Shown: positions 4,154 through 21,163 of the stretch, piece by piece
Numbering within the stretch: the stretch's first letter is position 1
How the letters are laid out: the number at the start of each line of letters is the position of its first letter
Assembly: GCA_010405405.1 (NCBI GenBank)
Contig: MU004239.1
Coordinates: forward strand, 1,380,722-1,444,721
From: Microthyrium microscopicum
Lineage: Eukaryota
Direction of reading: 5' to 3'
DNA: 64,000 nucleotides
The notes under the pieces: generated by a model
Database searches by the model: none
What the model was told of the DNA's origin: nothing
What the model saw: only the letters and a program-made list of their open reading frames with translations
Translations under genes and position numbers: made by a program

Positions 4154-5367
4154 TCACTTCTTCTTCCCAGCAGCGATTAACTCTTCCCCATTCCTAACAA
4201 CACCCACTAAAGCACCCGTCTGTATCAACTCACTCCCACCACCACTCAGCCGATACTCAATCTCACTTAATCCCTCCAACCACGTAATCCGCGTTGCAGC
4301 ACCAACGTCCAGCTTTCCCAACTCTTCCGCTAACGCCGTCAGAATATCTGCCAACGCCAATCCCTTGGCCGCTTTGAGCTGCGCCACAAACTGCAAACAG
4401 CTCTTAATATCTGTGTTCTTCAACAACTCATCGCGGATTCGTCGTACATCGTCTGGTCGTGGTGCTGCGATGCAGTCGTATATCGTCATTTCTGTGATCA
4501 TGTCGCGCACAATGTCTTTGGCTTCTGGCTTTTTCTCGCCTGGCGCAACCAGCGGCGTGCTGGATGCGTGACATGCCTGCAGGACGTTCAAGGCTCGTCG
4601 CATGTCGCCTTTACTTAGGCGGACGAGACTTGCCACAGCCGCTGGCTCAATCTGAACCCTCTCCTCTTCAATGACCGTATCTACCAAGTGTCGAATATCC
4701 GGCTCCTTCAATGGACTGAACCTGAATCTCGTACAACGCGATAGTAGCGCTGGGCTGAGTTTGTGCGTGTAATTCGCGATGATCACAAATCGTGTATTCG
4801 CTGTATACTTCTCCATGATCCGTCTGAGCGCCATCTGAGCCGTCGAAGTCATCGCATCTGCCTCGTCCAGAATAATCAACTTATAACCAGCCAAACTCTT
4901 ATGGTCGCCAGGTTTCGGTGCCGCTGAAAAGATTTGCTTGGTACTGCTAAACGTCTTGATTTGTTCGCGGACGACGTCGATGCCTCGGTCGTCAGAGGCG
5001 TTGAGTTCGAGGACCATCTGGCGCATGTTTTTGGTGCCATAGATTCGGCGGGCGAGGGCGAGGACTGTGGAGGTTTTGCCCGTTCCCGGGGGTCCGTACA
5101 GGAGGAGATGGGGGAGGCGCTGAAGTGGGTTAGTCGCTTGAATTGAAGAGGGATTGAAGAACGAACGTTTGTTTCAACGAATTTGTTTATCGTCGCGAGA
5201 ATGTCTTGGTGGCCCTCGACATCGTCGAGGGTGGATGGGCGAAATTTCTCAACCCACGGGAGAGAGTCTTCTGCTTCGACCGGCAGATCGCGGTGTATTC
5301 GTTTGCCTTTTTGTTCAGCGCCGAATTGGACGTCAATGTCCATTCGGTTTTCCTCATCATCGGACAT
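4154..5367 (-). CDS. RFC3: Replication factor C small subunit (yeast Rfc3 / human RFC5 type), 2 exons (5367-5167, 5119-4154)
   Basis: LPWVEKFRP, Walker A GPPGTGKTS, ELNASDDRGIDVVREQIK, Walker B DEAD and SRC motif. Intron 5120-5166 has GTTCGT/ACTAAC/CAG. Confidence 0.95.
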
Positions 5368-5422
5368 TTTGGGGATTGTGGGATAGTTCTAGGAATTTTA
5401 GGATGGAGTAGAAGTCGAGAAG

Positions 5423-5436
5423 ACGCGTCGACGCGT
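5423..5436. promoter_or_regulatory. Tandem MCB (MluI cell-cycle) boxes upstream of RFC3
   Basis: ACGCGTcgACGCGT, a 14-bp perfect palindrome about 55 nt upstream of the RFC3 ATG. MCBs are established G1/S elements of fungal replication genes. Confidence 0.65.
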
Positions 5437-5810
5437 TTTCCCATTAAGCTCTATCACTAAGCAAATCGAGGCCTGTGATTGGTCAAATTCCCCATTCTCA
5501 ATGGTGTTGAGAAAGAAGCAGCAGATCGAATTCTCGAAGACATAAATAACAGTGTAATCTTGAGTTTTCCATATTGACTAGATAATGTCTCCTAACAGTA
5601 TCATAACTACTTTGCGGTTGGTGGTATAAGGCTTCAGCCTTAAGCTCTCAGATTATCCCCCACCACTCAACCTCCCCTCCACCAAAAACTAACCTCACGA
5701 TCTCATCTTCAATCCTCCACACCACATCGAAGCTCCAATCGAGCTCTACAATCACCAACATCCCCCTTCTATCCCGCTTCTATCCCGCCAAACCTCTCCA
5801 ATACCCCAGG

Positions 5811-14210: not shown

Positions 14211-16738
14211 ATGGCAGACCAAGAGGACTCTTTCCATCCAGCACTCGAAACTATGTCTCGTACAAACACAGACGGTATACCAAACAATAACAGCGGTTCC
14301 GGTCCAGTAGCTCTAGAGCAACTTCTATCAAAAGATCAAAGTACCATCCTAGGTGTCATCAGCGAGCTTCGACAGAACTATGGTGGCGAAGACTACACTG
14401 ACCTGCCTCAAATCATTGTCTGTGGTGATCAATCCTCTGGTAAGAGCTCGGTTTTGGAAGCAATTTCCCAGCTAGATTTCCCCCGAGACGGCGTACTATG
14501 CACCGTTTTCCCAACTGAGCTCACGATCAACCATCCCAACGCTTCCGAAAAACAAGAAGTTTGGATATTGTGGGCAGATGGCAGTGAGCCAACACAAATA
14601 GTACCCAAATCGGACATTCGGCAAAGTTTTGCAGAGACAATACAGCACGCCAAAGCAATCATAACTGAAAAACACGCTGGCCGACAAAATTCTTTCTTCA
14701 AAGACGTCCTGCAGATTCGCGTCAAGAACGAAGCATGGCCACCACTTACTCTCGTCGATCTACCAGGGCTCATTGCCAATCGAGACGATGGACAAAGCCG
14801 GGAAGCACCAGCTATCGTTCGAGAGATGATGTGGAGCTATATGAGAAAACCTGATACTATTATATTCGCTGTCGTTGCAGCAATGATCGATCCAGCCACC
14901 CAAGGAGTGCTTTCTATGGCCAAAGAATGTGATCCGAGAGGAGAACGGACTTTGGCAGTAATAACGAAACCAGACAGAATACAGATGGCAGATCCCTTGG
15001 AGAACAAATGGATCAGCACTGCCACTAGCTCTGAGCGATACAAGTTTGCTCACGGCTGGCATGTTGTTCGAAATCGTGGTCCTGATGATGTTGGCTCCAG
15101 CTTCGCAGAGAGAGATCTTGCAGAGGAGGAGTTCTTCGACACCCGAAATGCTTGGAAAGATAAGCTCGGTAGCTCCTGCCTGGGAGTTGATGCTCTTCGC
15201 ACGAAACTTGCCCGGATCCTGGAGACACGCATTCAAAACAGCCTGCCTGGAATTAGAACCACCATTTTCAGCAATCTTTTCAAATACGAAGCTCAACGTG
15301 AGGCCATGGGAGAGGCCCGTCCAACTAATGAGAACAAACTCAATTACCTTGTTCAAATTGCCGAGAAATTTCAAACGATTGTCGATCAAGCCTGTAATGG
15401 AACCTACGACCATACTTTCTTTAAAGTAAAAGGGGAAAGCGGACGAAGAAATCTTCGTGCAAATATCGTCAACCGCAACAAGGCCTTTGCTTATCGAATG
15501 AACAACCATGGACGACGATTTAATTGGAGGCTCAGCCAGCATGGAGCCGTTCCAATTCTGGATGATGGACTGCAAGATCTGTGTGTGCCACTACCTTATG
15601 AGCTTGAAGAAGAAAGCTACAAAGAAACTCTTCTGGAGATGATGCAGCAGACCCGAGGAAATGAACTGGATGGTATGTCGAATCCGGTACATGTCAAGAT
15701 GGCCTTCCAAGAGCAATGCGCCAACTGGGATGCAATTGCTAATGCTCATGTTGACTACGCACACCAATTGACCCTCACTTTCTTGGATCTTGCTGTATCT
15801 CATGTCACGGGAGATGCTCACATTACATCTCAAATTTACACGCAGATAATTGAGCCACGCATGGAAGAGAAACGAGCTATTCTCAAGAGCAAAGTCGAAG
15901 AACTATACTCCATATACAGAGACTTGTCACCTGCAACCCAGGACCCTGAGTGGATGTCCAAGGTGGGAGCTTTACGAGAGAAATACCTCGAAACCGGTGG
16001 CAAGCTTCTTGACCCAAGCGGATTTGTCATGGATGTCTTGATAATCTCCGAGATGTATTACCAGGTAAGACCTCCCTTCTTAGAACAGACTACTTCGCCA
16101 TCACGTACTGACTGATGTAGATTGCCCTAGCGCGCTTCGTAGACAACGTTGGCGCTTTAGCTATCGAGAATTGCCTCGTCCGAGACTTGAAGAAGATCTT
16201 TGATCCTATCCAGATCTACCGTCTAGCTCAAGAAAATCCTGAGAAGATCAACGACTTGGCGTCAGAATCTTATGAAACTGTTCACGAAAGACAAGTAGTC
16301 GAAAGACGGATCAAGAACCTGAAGAAGCAAAAGGACATCATCAGCCGCATCCGTATTCCTCACAGCATCACATCAGCTTCTCAAGCAGGATCATCCGTTC
16401 CGTTGATGAAGTTGTCCCCTCCGACTCCAGGTCCACAAGAACTTGCTCGCGGCTCTGGGTACCAAACTCCTGTGAGGTCACCGTCCCCAAATCAAGCATC
16501 ACCTGCTTCTAGCGACCGATCTTACTCTAGCTCACCAGCTCGAGATCATGATGGCCACTCTCGAGCGTCGTCTGCCACCTCCGTGGCTTCTGCATCTCCA
16601 GAGTATGGAAGCAAGGCTGCTGAGACTGCCACTATGGGTCTGTTTGGTTCTGGGAAACAATCTCCACAGAGATCGCCATCACGGGGGTTTAGGTCAAGTT
16701 TTGGATCTCGCTCAAAGCATGGCTCGCAAGGCGAGTAA
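14211..16738 (+). CDS. Dynamin-superfamily (Mx-like) large GTPase, about 823 aa, 2 exons (14211-16064, 16121-16738)
   Basis: LPQIIVCGDQSSGKSSVLEAI (G1), LTLVDLPG (G3), TKPD (G4), GWHVVRNR, and GED-like YYQIALARFVDNVGALAIENCL across intron 16065-16120. S/P-rich tail. Confidence 0.92.
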
Positions 16739-17040
16739 ACGCTGGCGAAATAGGCGATATGTTCACACACACAAAGACCAAAAGCGACTCTGATTCTGAG
16801 TTTTGAAATTGTCTACACTTCTCACGGTAACAAGGCGTTATAAGTATCATGATTTAGTATGAATGAACACGAACTTTTCACTGACAGCCATGAACAATGT
16901 GATCAATATAAATCTGCTTTATTTCATTTCTATCTATACTGAATCCCAACCCCGTTTCCACAGCCCAGCAGCATCGACAAGCACACCAGACCCAAGGATC
17001 TGACATGCTCGTCGACACTGTCGAGCTTCCAAGAGATCAT

Positions 17041-17661
17041 ATGGGTTCCATCAAGTGCCATGGGAGCCACCACACCCCATGGAGTTATCACGGACGATAA
17101 GGAGATGGCGGATAATTGAATGGCAGCCAAGTGATGCGGTGGACAATAGGTGATACGATGGGAGCCACCGCACCTGGAGTTGTCTCGGACGATTTCGGAC
17201 CAGGCTCAGACATCAATCCTAGAATTGTATGGGAACCATATGGTGCGCTGGGCAATACGTGATGCGATGGGAGACATCAGACCTGATTGAAATGTTGCGT
17301 TGATAGAGGCCAGCTCCGAGAATCCAGTCCTAGGTGGCAAGGATATGCAATCAGATGGGCGCCATGTGATGTGCTGGGCATTACGTGATGCGATGGGAGC
17401 CACCACACCTGTTTGGGATGTTGCGAACATCCAGCGCGTCCTCGAGATTCCCATCCTACTTACCGTCTGGTGGTAATAGGGCGGGAGCCAGATGACGCGC
17501 TGAGCAATAGATGATCGTCTGGGAGACATGTGATGCGATGGGAGCCAGCAAACCTGAAGAGACTTCTGGGGATTTTCAAGTCCAGCCCAAAGTCCAAGTC
17601 CTTGTGACTTGAGGGAGAGCTTTGGATGGGCAATACGTGATGCGATGGGAGCCAACGAGTC
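17041..17661. repeat. Nested degenerate repeat array: 5-6 blocks built from a 19-nt core (ACGTGATGCGATGGGAGCC) separated by 45-47-nt segments
   Basis: GTGATRCGATGGGAG(C/A)CA begins at about 17150, 17259, 17385, 17530 and 17637, with a partial copy near 17060. Three of the block lengths (61, 79, 98 nt) step by about 19 nt; a fourth is 64 nt. Confidence 0.9.
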
Positions 17662-19070
17662 CTTTGGGGTAGATCGGATTCGTTGAGTTCGTCACATCGG
17701 CCAGGGAGATTTGGTTTCCGGCGACGACAGGAGCCATAAAATTGCACAGATCATCACCCGGGAGATAGCGCAACATGATGGTGATGGTTTCCTGATCTGG
17801 ATAACACTGTTAGTTCGCGAACATTTGCAGCCTAGGAATAAGGCATATCTCACAGATTTTGCCAAGAGAAAAGGGCACAAGTCCTCCTGGAGTGAAGTCT
17901 TCGCTTTTCAGAACAGCCAAACCGGTGTCTCCTAAGATATTTTAGGCAATGGCGAGGATCTCCGTCTGAATGAAAATGTCAGTTCATATCTATTCATGGC
18001 AAGAAAGGACATATACCTCTTAGACTAGACGAAAGTCCCACCACCACAAACAGCCATCGCAAAGTGCATCGAAACAAGTGAACCAGCACCATATTTCTCA
18101 ACATCAAAGCAACGCGAGCCAAAAAGCCCAAACACAAAGAACAAAGAAGACTTCAAAAGTGATCTGGCAAAACCCACAAAGAGCGACGATTCAACAACCT
18201 TTATACCCTTCCAAAACGCCCCGACCATTCCAAAAAATCGCTCACCAGGGAGACGTCAGTCGGCGAAACCGCCTTCACATGATAGACGCAATAGCACTCA
18301 GCGGCTGATGCTTTGGAGCCTTTAACCAAAAGAGGCGTCGGAACGCCCCATTGTTCACAGAAACGTGGACTACTGAACAAAAACGTGAGCTAGTAGTTTT
18401 CTACCACCACCTACCAAAATGCCATCAACTCATTGGACAATTTGACGAGATTGATCACGTGGAGGGGACCGTGATACTCAATGTTAGCGGGTATTTTGGG
18501 CTGTTTGGGCTCACTATTGGCTGTGGTGGAAATATAAACGCCCCGGTGTTGCACAGAGTTGTGAAGTTTTCTGAGACGGGGGCTAGACTCAATGGGATCA
18601 AGGGAGGCCTTCACAGATCAGCGGCCTCTGCGTGATTTATGGACTGGACGGCGGAATTGGTGCCGGAGGCCGGGCGGGAAGGAAGCTGATGGAGGATGAT
18701 GGAAGTTGGTGGATTTATGGCAGACCTTGTGGATTTGGAATGGTGAGAGCAGCGAGTTGAGCTGAGGGAGATTGTTTTGGAGCTGGTCGATGATGATGGC
18801 CAGTATCCCATAAAGCGCTGGGAGATGCTGCATGGTCCATTTGACACGGTGTTGGCGATGTGAGACTTCAGCGACGAGCAAGAACAGATCCGCTGAGAAA
18901 CGCACATTGCAGGACTATGTTAACGAGCATCAATTCGAACGCCGGTGGAATACTGTTATAGGTCTTCACATATCTAGGCGCGTCGCAGCAGCAAGCGATA
19001 TCAAGGAGATAGATTTGGAAAGCATATGGACCATAATCGAGACCTTGATCTAACATGTCATTTCCCAACA
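17662..19070 (-). pseudogene. Probable decayed multi-exon gene or spliced non-coding unit
   Basis: Canonical minus-strand introns 17797-17853 (GTGAGA/ACTAAC/CAG) and 17966-18016 (GTATAT/ACTGAC/CAG). The spliced frame TEILAIA*NILGDTGLAVLKSEDF...GKIYQETITIMLRYLPG has an in-frame TAA at 17942-17944. Confidence 0.4.
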
Positions 19071-19210: not shown

Positions 19211-21163
19211 TCAAATCAGCTTGAAGTACCGAAAAGCACAAATGCATAGGACGCAGAAGGTTGCGATCAATCCAACGATGCCGCCAAACCATGCCAAGCC
19301 ACCAGCGTCTTTGCCGGGCACGTTGACGTTCATACCAAACAAACCAGTCACAATATTCATGGGCACCAGAATTGTGGCGAGCAGAGTGACTTTTCCAAGA
19401 AGGCGATTGATGCGATTGCCACCTTCAATGTTGTCAACGTTGATTTGGGCCAAGAAGTTGGTATGCACTCGGGACAGGAGCTGCTCCGAATGGGACAAAT
19501 TGTCACGCATGGTGATAATATGGTCCTGGATATCGCTGAGATAGATACCCACATCGCCCGCAGGAGCAACGCTGAAGTTCTCGTTGCATCGCTTGGCGAA
19601 GCCCTTTACAACGTCGGATTTGGTGCCTAGCAGGCGCAGGAGAGTCATGACACCTTTTCGACATTCGCCAATGCGTCCGAGCACAGTGCGGGCGTCTTCA
19701 TCGCGAGAAGTGAAGACACAGTCCTCGATCGTATCGACGTCTGTCTCAATGTCCTGGATGGCAGGCATGAAACCATCGACGATGTCATCAATCAAGGCGT
19801 AACACATCCAGTCAGCAGAAATGGACATGTAGTCGCGCAGCTTGCTGATACGACGAAGCACGTTGCCAGCGTGCTGATGGGTCGAGTGCGAGAAAGTGAG
19901 CATACCAGTTCTGAAAACTACCGCGTAGACGTTGATAGGCTCCAGGTAGTTTTCCTTGTCAGCCTTGTTGTTATCGAAAGAGCGGAAAGCCAAGAAGTAG
20001 TAATGCTTGAACAATTCTACCTTCTCGCGAGACTCCTGGGTATTGATATCCTCCCGAGTCAAGGGATGGACACCAAACGCTTTGCAAAGGACGTTGACCT
20101 CATCCTCGGAGGGACTAGTGACGTCCAACCACCAGACACCGTCTTCTTCATCATGCACAGAAAAGAGATCCTTGAAAGTCTCGTCTTCTCCCAGTAGACC
20201 ACCCAGGCTGGTGGCGTGAATTGTTTCTTCACCTTCTGTAGTGAAGAAGGTATAGAAGGGTTGGGTTTTCCCGGTGCCTGATGCGCCCATACGAGCATCA
20301 TGTTTGGCCTTTTCCAGCTCGGCAAAATCATCATTGTCATCTTGCGGCTTGATAAGCGGAGATGGCAAGGCGATTGGTCCTTCCTTGTCATCCGACTCCA
20401 ATGGAATTGTCAGTGGTGTTGTCGGGACCGTAATACCTCCTGGAACATCAGCCTCTGCCTCGGCCACAAATTCTTCCAGTTCTTCGAAATCGATATCAGG
20501 CTCGGATTCCATATGCTCAGACTGTGGATAGCAAACGTCCTTCTCAGCCGAAGAATCCGTGGAGTCACTCTCGTTCTCACCAGTCACCGACCCTTCGGTA
20601 AAGGTCAATCGACGACGTGGAAGACCCTCTGCAGAGCTAGCAGCAGGAACTGGTCGTTCACCCGTGTTTGCCGTGTTGCTACGATGGCGACGGCGACGCT
20701 CAGCGAAAGCATGGATTGAAGTGGGCGGCGAAGGAGATGAGTCTCCTGATGAAGAAGATTCGCGCGATCTATTGCGACGAGCTCGGCGATGTGCGCGTCG
20801 TCGTCCTGCAGGCATACTCAAACTTGCCTGTCGAGCTTCTCCGCCATCCGTGACAATAGAAGCGTTGTCATCCACGATCGCATTTTCGAAGTCCCGAGCA
20901 ATGGTTCCGCCTTCCAAGATGCTGGGCTCTGGTAGTTCCGGACGCGCGCTTCCCTGGCTCAGGGCAGTACCCCGACGAGTGCGAGAGCTGGATCCACCAT
21001 GTCGATGGGGAACAGACAGCTGTTGGCGATGATCGTCCAGATCCATGTCAATCAAATTGCCAGTAGCATTGCCTGGGCTGACTGGCGAAACAGCCTCGTT
21101 CTCCTCCCGGACGTTCTCAGCAAGGTGGAGTGCCAACTGGTTAGACTGGTTATAAGAAGACAT
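19211..21163 (-). CDS. ALR1: CorA-family Mg2+ transporter (Alr1-like)
   Basis: WWLDV, FGVHPLTREDI, REKVELFKHYYF, ALIDDIVDGF, and GLFGMNV (GMN motif) followed by a second TM helix. Single 650-aa ORF. Confidence 0.92.
   Translation of the reverse strand: MSSYNQSNQLALHLAENVREENEAVSPVSPGNATGNLIDMDLDDHRQQLSVPHRHGGSSSRTRRGTALSQGSARPELPEPSILEGGTIARDFENAIVDDNASIVTDGGEARQASLSMPAGRRRAHRRARRNRSRESSSSGDSSPSPPTSIHAFAERRRRHRSNTANTGERPVPAASSAEGLPRRRLTFTEGSVTGENESDSTDSSAEKDVCYPQSEHMESEPDIDFEELEEFVAEAEADVPGGITVPTTPLTIPLESDDKEGPIALPSPLIKPQDDNDDFAELEKAKHDARMGASGTGKTQPFYTFFTTEGEETIHATSLGGLLGEDETFKDLFSVHDEEDGVWWLDVTSPSEDEVNVLCKAFGVHPLTREDINTQESREKVELFKHYYFLAFRSFDNNKADKENYLEPINVYAVVFRTGMLTFSHSTHQHAGNVLRRISKLRDYMSISADWMCYALIDDIVDGFMPAIQDIETDVDTIEDCVFTSRDEDARTVLGRIGECRKGVMTLLRLLGTKSDVVKGFAKRCNENFSVAPAGDVGIYLSDIQDHIITMRDNLSHSEQLLSRVHTNFLAQINVDNIEGGNRINRLLGKVTLLATILVPMNIVTGLFGMNVNVPGKDAGGLAWFGGIVGLIATFCVLCICAFRYFKLI

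Follow-up and report, generated by a model that had tools for sequence, protein, structure and literature searches.

The question posed by this locus is whether a row of repeated blocks that begin and end like introns are introns at all. The blocks lie on the minus strand of a 64-kb stretch of the genome of the dothideomycete Microthyrium microscopicum (the window, meaning the whole of that stretch), and a preliminary description had read them as sister introns separated by mini-exons, with a non-coding higher-order satellite as the alternative. On re-analysis the blocks, their coordinates, the donor-like hexamers, the three TAG ends and the spacers of 47, 47, 47 and 45 nt were all reproduced on the minus strand (Table 1).

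The array spans approximately 630 nt and consists of five units of block plus spacer, with start-to-start distances of 107-145 nt. The units are homologous head-to-tail and 44-65% identical in pairwise comparison, the repetition is far beyond chance, and TRF assigned the array a period of 126 nt with a 76% match. Nested within this is a 19-nt unit, GATGG-N3-CCATC-N6, which alternates two inverted 5-mers; its cores recur along the array as direct repeats. Mismatches number 0-2 in five copies of the 19-mer, the first in each block being nearly invariant, and 6-8 in copies 2-4 within each block. Elsewhere in the 64-kb window there was no 19-mer match with fewer than 4 mismatches, and BLAST with the whole array returned only the self-match. 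The array does not have the form of a MITE itself, as a search across the window for paired terminal inverted repeats found none. A protein repeat was considered and rejected: the 161-codon frame over the array gave no Pfam match, and the 19-nt period shifts the frame.

Table 1. Coordinates of the array, its parts, the neighbouring features and further arrays of the 19-nt motif (positions in the window, or in the named locus where one is given)
Feature	Position	Strand	Description
Whole array	17031..17661	-	19-nt unit GATGG-N3-CCATC-N6; transcribed, unspliced in RNA contig
Block 1	17601..17661	-	61 nt; starts GACTCG (GA for GT), ends AAG; no branch motif; perfect core 17635-17653
Spacer 1	17554..17600	-	47 nt; resembles 3′ arm of introner-like family
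Block 2	17456..17553	-	98 nt; GTTTGC..TAG; one additional 19-nt unit; no branch motif; core 17528-17546
Spacer 2	17409..17455	-	47 nt; homologous to spacer 3 and to DNA upstream of C9 copy
Block 3	17330..17408	-	79 nt; GTGTGG..TAG; branch-like CTGAT at -25, the only block with one; core 17383-17401
Spacer 3	17283..17329	-	47 nt
Block 4	17219..17282	-	64 nt; GTCTGA..TAG; no branch motif near end; core 17257-17275
Spacer 4	17174..17218	-	45 nt
Block 5 and last degenerate unit pair	17031..17173	-	GTGCGG at 17173; cores 17148-17166 and 17050-17068; no acceptor
GT-AG intron, 57 nt	17797..17853	-	CTAAC at -17; removed in RNA contig
GT-AG intron, 51 nt	17966..18016	-	CTGAC at -17; removed in RNA contig
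Putative 80-codon ORF	17754..18104	-	First ATG; spans both verified introns; hydrophobic start
AATAAA in AT-rich stretch	16918..16923	-	Possible 3′ end of minus-strand RNA, from sequence
Dynamin-family GTPase gene	14212..16738	+	Convergent neighbour; one verified intron 16065-16120
CorA-family Mg2+ transporter gene	19211..21163	-	Upstream neighbour; 3′ UTR an alternative source of minus-strand RNA
Motif array	L053:4300-5750		Period 118-121 nt; contains assembly gap; just upstream of ATP synthase alpha gene
Motif array	L080:4765-5249		Period 148 nt
Motif array	L081:4760-5236		Period 76 nt
Motif array	L082:4282-4736		Period 135 nt
Motif array	L062:4579-5045		Period 135 nt
Motif array	L052:4890-5068		Period 19 nt
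Motif array	L055:6223-6482		Period 19 nt

Three sequencing runs contain the stretch, none of them catalogued as RNA; one, X1, was taken as RNA because four introns are absent from its contigs. X1 is a single run kept as contigs, a form in which minor forms are dropped and strand is not given. Its 5,966-nt contig (depth 602) lacks the dynamin intron and both minus-strand introns upstream of the array, and is continuous from 16119 to 17796 with no joint, gap or altered letter, spanning the whole array unspliced. The blocks are therefore not removed from RNA in X1, and the junctions 17553>17456, 17408>17330 and 17282>17219 proposed in the preliminary description are absent from the contig (one run, contigs only). 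This shows that the unspliced form of the array dominates in X1, with which splicing elsewhere, or rarely, remains compatible. The other two runs, X2 and X3, each hold one short, identical, unspliced piece of the array at a depth of 2-3; both carry the labels of other organisms, and their pieces, probably cross-talk, were set aside.

The putative 80-codon frame of this minus-strand transcript ends at 17754, and the array would therefore fall in its 3′ UTR. We conclude that the array sits in a transcribed, probably untranslated region. Further along, a low-depth X1 contig (depth 2) skips 54 nt at 14347-14402, with the CT..AC ends of a minus-strand intron, within the dynamin coding region. This skip suggests spliced antisense RNA, perhaps as read-through from the array transcript.

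The possibility that the blocks are, or were, introns has its origin in their boundaries. CAG/GT with G at +5 occurs in four of the five units, and AG/G in four of four. Three of the four AG-ended blocks have a GT donor and only one has a branch motif 8-30 nt before YAG, so that as a set they lack the signals of an intron; as the preliminary description had itself cautioned, block 1 has no GT and the block at 17173 no acceptor. A branch motif is found at -17 in both RNA-verified neighbouring introns, and in 40 of 45 introns of an introner-like family described below.

Excision of the blocks leaves a single frame open, as the preliminary description had stated, but this is weak as evidence, since an open frame of some kind survives in 16% of shuffles. 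Once joined, the spacers extend, in phase, an open frame of 72 codons that lies upstream and crosses the verified intron at 17797-17853. Against an intron reading, the 47-nt units fall into three different reading frames, and the upstream frame contains a stop and lacks an early start once the acceptor used in the RNA contig is taken into account. Use of a second possible acceptor in exon 2 (TTAG ending 17933; 17933-17941) would connect the 72-codon frame with the hydrophobic start; in the RNA contig only the acceptor at 17966 is used. No credible homologue of the upstream frame was found: the 72-aa frame entering the array matched only itself in a genome search and gave no lead in an atlas search. 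Twelve other matches among 1.84 billion representatives, multi-stretch and at 29-39% to long repeat proteins, were judged spurious from one sequence. The public 146-aa gene model, an orphan without a homologue, enters block 1 unspliced and terminates inside it.

We then consider the segments between the blocks, described initially as much more divergent. The spacers are nonetheless mutual homologues: all six pairs align above shuffles (z 2.6-7.3), S2 and S3 are identical at 30 of 47 positions, and 15 of 47 columns are invariant among the three 47-mer spacers against approximately 3 expected, a likeness that is due in part to the common GA..CAG ends by which the spacers had been defined. Given this homology, CAG/GT is one ancestral site copied by tandem duplication rather than four independent signals.

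A single copy of the array subtype was found outside the array, at G000:C9:1424838 (L089:4880-5030; E 6e-8), and no other outside match was obtained. This C9 copy is not tandem and is intergenic, with an ORF ending at 4765 before it and the next long ORF at 5373. It has approximately 25 nt of spacer, AG/GT, the core, and TAG/G some 80 nt further on in common with the array, and its spacer part matches spacer 2 (p=0.005). As the copy carries both spacer and AG/GT, the AG/GT lies inside a dispersed unit. Selection for splicing would also explain the preservation of AG/GT and of TAG/G at ~80 nt.

On this evidence we consider it unlikely that the blocks are introns produced by tandem duplication of an exon-plus-intron unit, whether they are removed in some minor isoform or under other conditions, or carry splice signals that have decayed. 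Same-gene intron duplications with duplicated flanking exons have been described in fungi (PMC3609843, in the passages drawn on here), and we leave some weight on real or decayed introns because both boundaries are preserved in the C9 copy and because the frame through the joined spacers continues the 72-codon one. The sister-intron interpretation is nevertheless not borne out, as the array is unspliced in X1 while the upstream introns are removed, and three of the four AG-ended blocks have no branch motif. The alternative of a non-coding higher-order satellite fits an array of unspliced, homologous tandem units.

The motif of this tandem repeat is widespread in the genome. The array core had 26 genome matches against 1 for the control, a shifted 15-mer 107 against 3, and a motif profile, run on the window stretch and on 56 stretches of 9.9 kb surrounding listed matches, 449 sites against 6 when the sequence was reversed. 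The preliminary description had asked for a genome search for the 19-mer; copies lie in many other introns, and these introns form an introner-like family. AGGT precedes only 6 of 166 strong motif sites. Motif clusters between short ORFs were also considered as integron-like gene cassettes, and this was rejected as the ORFs are exons of ordinary genes.

The motif also occurs in other tandem arrays with unrelated spacers, at periods of 19, 38, 76, 118-121, 135 and 148 nt. Among TRF rows with a period of at least 50 and GC above 30%, 10 of 17 carry the motif, at 8 loci including the window; the scanned loci were chosen for the motif, and this is no test of enrichment. Two of six arrays (L080, L081, L082, L062, L052, L055) lie within predicted introns. 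The ATP synthase alpha gene that follows the L053 array also has a motif-bearing last intron (274 nt).

The recurrence of such arrays, one of them just upstream of the ATP synthase alpha gene, bears on a functional reading, in which the array would serve on DNA as a co-opted group of sites bound by a host protein or a domesticated transposase, or be a 3′ UTR or lncRNA element recruiting an RNA-binding protein. Consistent with such a role, the region is transcribed, and the first 19-mer of each block has 0-2 mismatches even though identity between units reaches only 44-65%. Conserved cores are, however, also expected where slippage or gene conversion homogenises the repeats, and the fold is modest for the whole array (z -2.1) and absent in single blocks (z -1.1 to +0.9). 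We regard a functional platform as quite unlikely, and return to the origin of the array as a repeat.

The dispersed relative that gives the motif a context is a 213-bp non-coding element with 46-bp terminal inverted repeats and CA..TG ends, which has the features of a MITE. All 40 scored candidates (of 191) were full-length and, apart from the query, 84-92% identical; the terminal repeat had 151 matches against 0. Target duplications in paired MITEs were perfect over 5 nt in 20/66 and over 6 nt in 13/66 (together 33/66), as opposed to 0.4% in mismatched pairs. The terminal repeat, whose inner part is matched by the array motif, contains CCATC-N6-GATGG-N3-CCA, and in older MITE subfamilies the letters of the 6-nt spacer are identical to those of the genome-wide motif. 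The CA..TG ends and 5-6-bp target duplications resemble those of cut-and-paste transposons with CA..TG ends, either hAT5/hAT6 elements, with 5- and 6-bp duplications, or the CMCT clade, with 2-5-bp duplications, as these are described in the relevant passages of PMC12730594. Unlike either, the 213-bp MITE shows both 5- and 6-nt duplications within one family.

An autonomous partner was sought among 19 RIP-decayed hAT relics, of which the 15 examined held no trace of the MITE terminal repeat, and in 20 stretches around unpaired-looking MITE ends, where only short elements were present and no long element lay between the ends. A KDZ search was blank, as was its control. The hAT transposase relics (L138-L152) lie in AT-rich DNA, with 13-25% GC in 15, and contain TAG/TAA stops, as heavy RIP would leave, whereas RIP seems to have largely spared the short MITEs. 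As no autonomous transposon was found, it is by inference that we speak of a transposase-binding site, which the 19-nt motif likely is.

The introns in which the motif occurs form a family of their own. Motif clusters are numerous in introns of 110-600 nt in ordinary genes, and the 5′ end of the family, GGTAAGAWTYCCC, has 31 occurrences against 0; a motif lies within 250 nt downstream of 19 of 30 such donors, and upstream of 1 of 30. A 223-nt profile retrieved at least 56 distinct full-length copies from the 56 stretches and the other DNA analysed. These many similar introns reside in unrelated genes, including those for phospholipase D, IRE1, ATP synthase alpha and a ubiquitin protease. The insertion site is G/G (50/56 and 41/56, counts that are partly circular because the ends were snapped to the nearest GT/AG), and a flank duplication of at least 2 nt is seen in 1 of 56. 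In keeping with introner-like elements (ILEs), the family thus lacks a target-site duplication and has canonical splice signals and a stable fold (z<=-2 in 27/45). Intron phases are distributed 17/19/12 among the 48 copies with open frames; the in-frame test itself is weak, at 48/56 against a null of 59%. Four motif-bearing copies are annotated as introns in public gene models. Our ab initio intron caller is crude and its low-score calls are artefacts; a call was accepted where Pfam continuity, a public model or the profile supported it, and not otherwise.

The copies have diverged considerably. Mean identity among 45 aligned copies is 63% (maximum 84%), and pairwise identity is 57% in the arms and 66% in the core. 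Since the arms outside the core are still 57% identical, entire introns have been copied, rather than fragments alone being dropped into old introns. Of 105 motif clusters, 12 overlap a full copy, 29 a one-armed copy and 25 the core alone; the other 39 overlap none. A degenerate copy in phospholipase D could be scored in 63 of 73 metagenome loci, representing 40 environmental fungal lineages: an intron is at the same nucleotide in 0 of 40 and nearby in 3; an intron of that gene without the motif is equally rare, being missing from 24 of 25 loci. Two of the three phospholipase D motif introns lie in unalignable regions, with 0 of 73 loci scored. One environmental fungus (L224:3880-4090) has a phospholipase D gene with two introns flanking a 7-nt micro-exon beside the tested position.

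Some family introns stand in head-to-tail pairs with no exon between them (AG/GT; L088:5136-5337 and 5338-5520, and L075:3128-3562 on the minus strand), an arrangement suited to recursive splicing. At 16065-16120, the verified dynamin intron (56 nt) starts GTAAGACCTCCC, like the 5′ end of the family, and contains CCATCACGTA, which resembles the motif; this intron may be a member of the family that has shrunk. At L193:1502-1932 a MITE end lies inside a family intron, from which it follows that the MITE moved after the intron was present.

Homology links the approximately 90-nt core of the family with both halves of the MITE. The intron profile matches 52 of 64 MITE copies against 0 of 64 reversed, and the MITE profile matches 31 of 45 introns. 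In a 900-nt search the array matched the MITE (E 0.005) and intron profiles (E 2e-5 to 7e-3) only through the motif.

This raises the possibility that one or more introner-like copies landed at the locus, lost their splice ends and expanded into a satellite, leaving the array as their decayed remains. The family profile aligns weakly at 17536-17693 (profile positions 43-199, E 1.6e-4 in 900 nt), and spacer 1 together with CAGG gave a match to the family 3′ arm (p=0.0002), where CAGG is internal and no splice site. Spacers 2-4 gave no match to that arm, however (p 0.17-0.35), and the C9 copy points to a different subfamily. Over all DNA analysed the 223-nt profile had no match to the window at E<1e-3. 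Membership of the blocks in the family was rejected on this ground and on their lack of the family 5′ and 3′ ends; nor do they resemble introns in unrelated genes end to end, their one outside copy being intergenic. We therefore hold descent from such introns to be highly unlikely: the 223-nt family is a separate, old introner-like family in M. microscopicum, apart from the array.

Together these data lead us to consider it probable that the array is a transcribed tandem repeat, unspliced in the tested RNA assembly, which likely arose by local duplication of a 110-145-nt piece of a MITE-related dispersed repeat. It has head-to-tail units, a monomer motif in common with the MITE terminal repeat, and one dispersed unit on C9, as a transposon-derived minisatellite should. 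In the mechanism we propose, a MITE-related fragment that already included the so-called exon and intron would have landed downstream of a small, spliced minus-strand transcript. Slippage or unequal exchange between motif copies would then have multiplied the piece five-fold and added or removed 19-nt units, as at other arrays. The CAG/GT and AG/G "junctions" would be one ancestral sequence copied along the array. That motif is also the core of the separate introner-like family, although the array is not built from those introns.

Comparable repeats are known from animals. Tetris of Drosophila virilis (PMC4079207) and DTC84 of Donax (PMC3879986) appear in the passages used here as transposon-derived minisatellites, or as MITEs or foldback elements bearing tandem repeats. 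Like these, our locus is a short array from a piece of a non-autonomous inverted-repeat element, with nested periods and dispersed relatives. Unlike them, it has five units only, at 44-65% identity, and lies inside a transcript in a gene-dense fungal region; what is known of its parent element comes only from the shared motif and a single copy elsewhere.

The 223-nt family has its counterpart in the ILEs of Dothideomycetes, which in the portions consulted of PMC3609843 and PMC4457414 (and van der Burgt 2012 as cited there) are long, structured, degenerating introns, similar end-to-end, in unrelated genes and without target-site duplication. The window blocks differ from those ILEs (PMC3609843; PMC4457414) in having no family ends, branch point, folding or splicing. 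Sister stwintrons and symmetrical introns of Hypoxylaceae, to judge from the parts of PMC8469720 drawn on, are like the family in being proliferating introns that are palindromic within themselves and lack target-site duplications, and head-to-tail pairs occur in both. Their 45-55-nt inverted repeats are terminal, whereas the palindrome of the 223-nt family is internal, and the window array, unlike the Hypoxylaceae introns, is unspliced. Ascomycete introners are called an outlier without terminal inverted repeats or target-site duplications in the section of PMC9860276 used here, and no homology between fungal ILEs and MITEs is reported in the consulted passages of the ILE and MITE literature. 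Our literature search, whose coverage left subscription journals mostly outside, found no paper on the 223-nt family.

An old introner-like family is thus present in M. microscopicum despite a score of zero introner families in two surveys, as given in the supplements of PMC9860276 and PMC12130899. In the material consulted, the PMC9860276 survey scores Dothistroma as zero too, and old families therefore escape its pipeline.

By itself the array is an ordinary small satellite, and shows that a duplicated AG/GT can mimic a string of mini-exons. The link between MITE and introner matters more. We offer, tentatively and as a doubtful proposition, a model where the 19-nt motif is one transposase-binding site common to the MITE, the local satellites and the introner family, whose 90-nt core would be half a MITE. 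Introners would then be a DNA-transposon derivative with the binding sites inside, having gained arms with splice signals and inserting at G/G without target-site duplication. If a founder intron merely carried a MITE scar, the likeness between MITE and introner is a curiosity. If true, descent of the introners from the MITE would let the origin of ascomycete introner-like elements be traced to a transposon, with a named site for testing; and if the shared site serves mobilisation, how ascomycete introners move would become testable.
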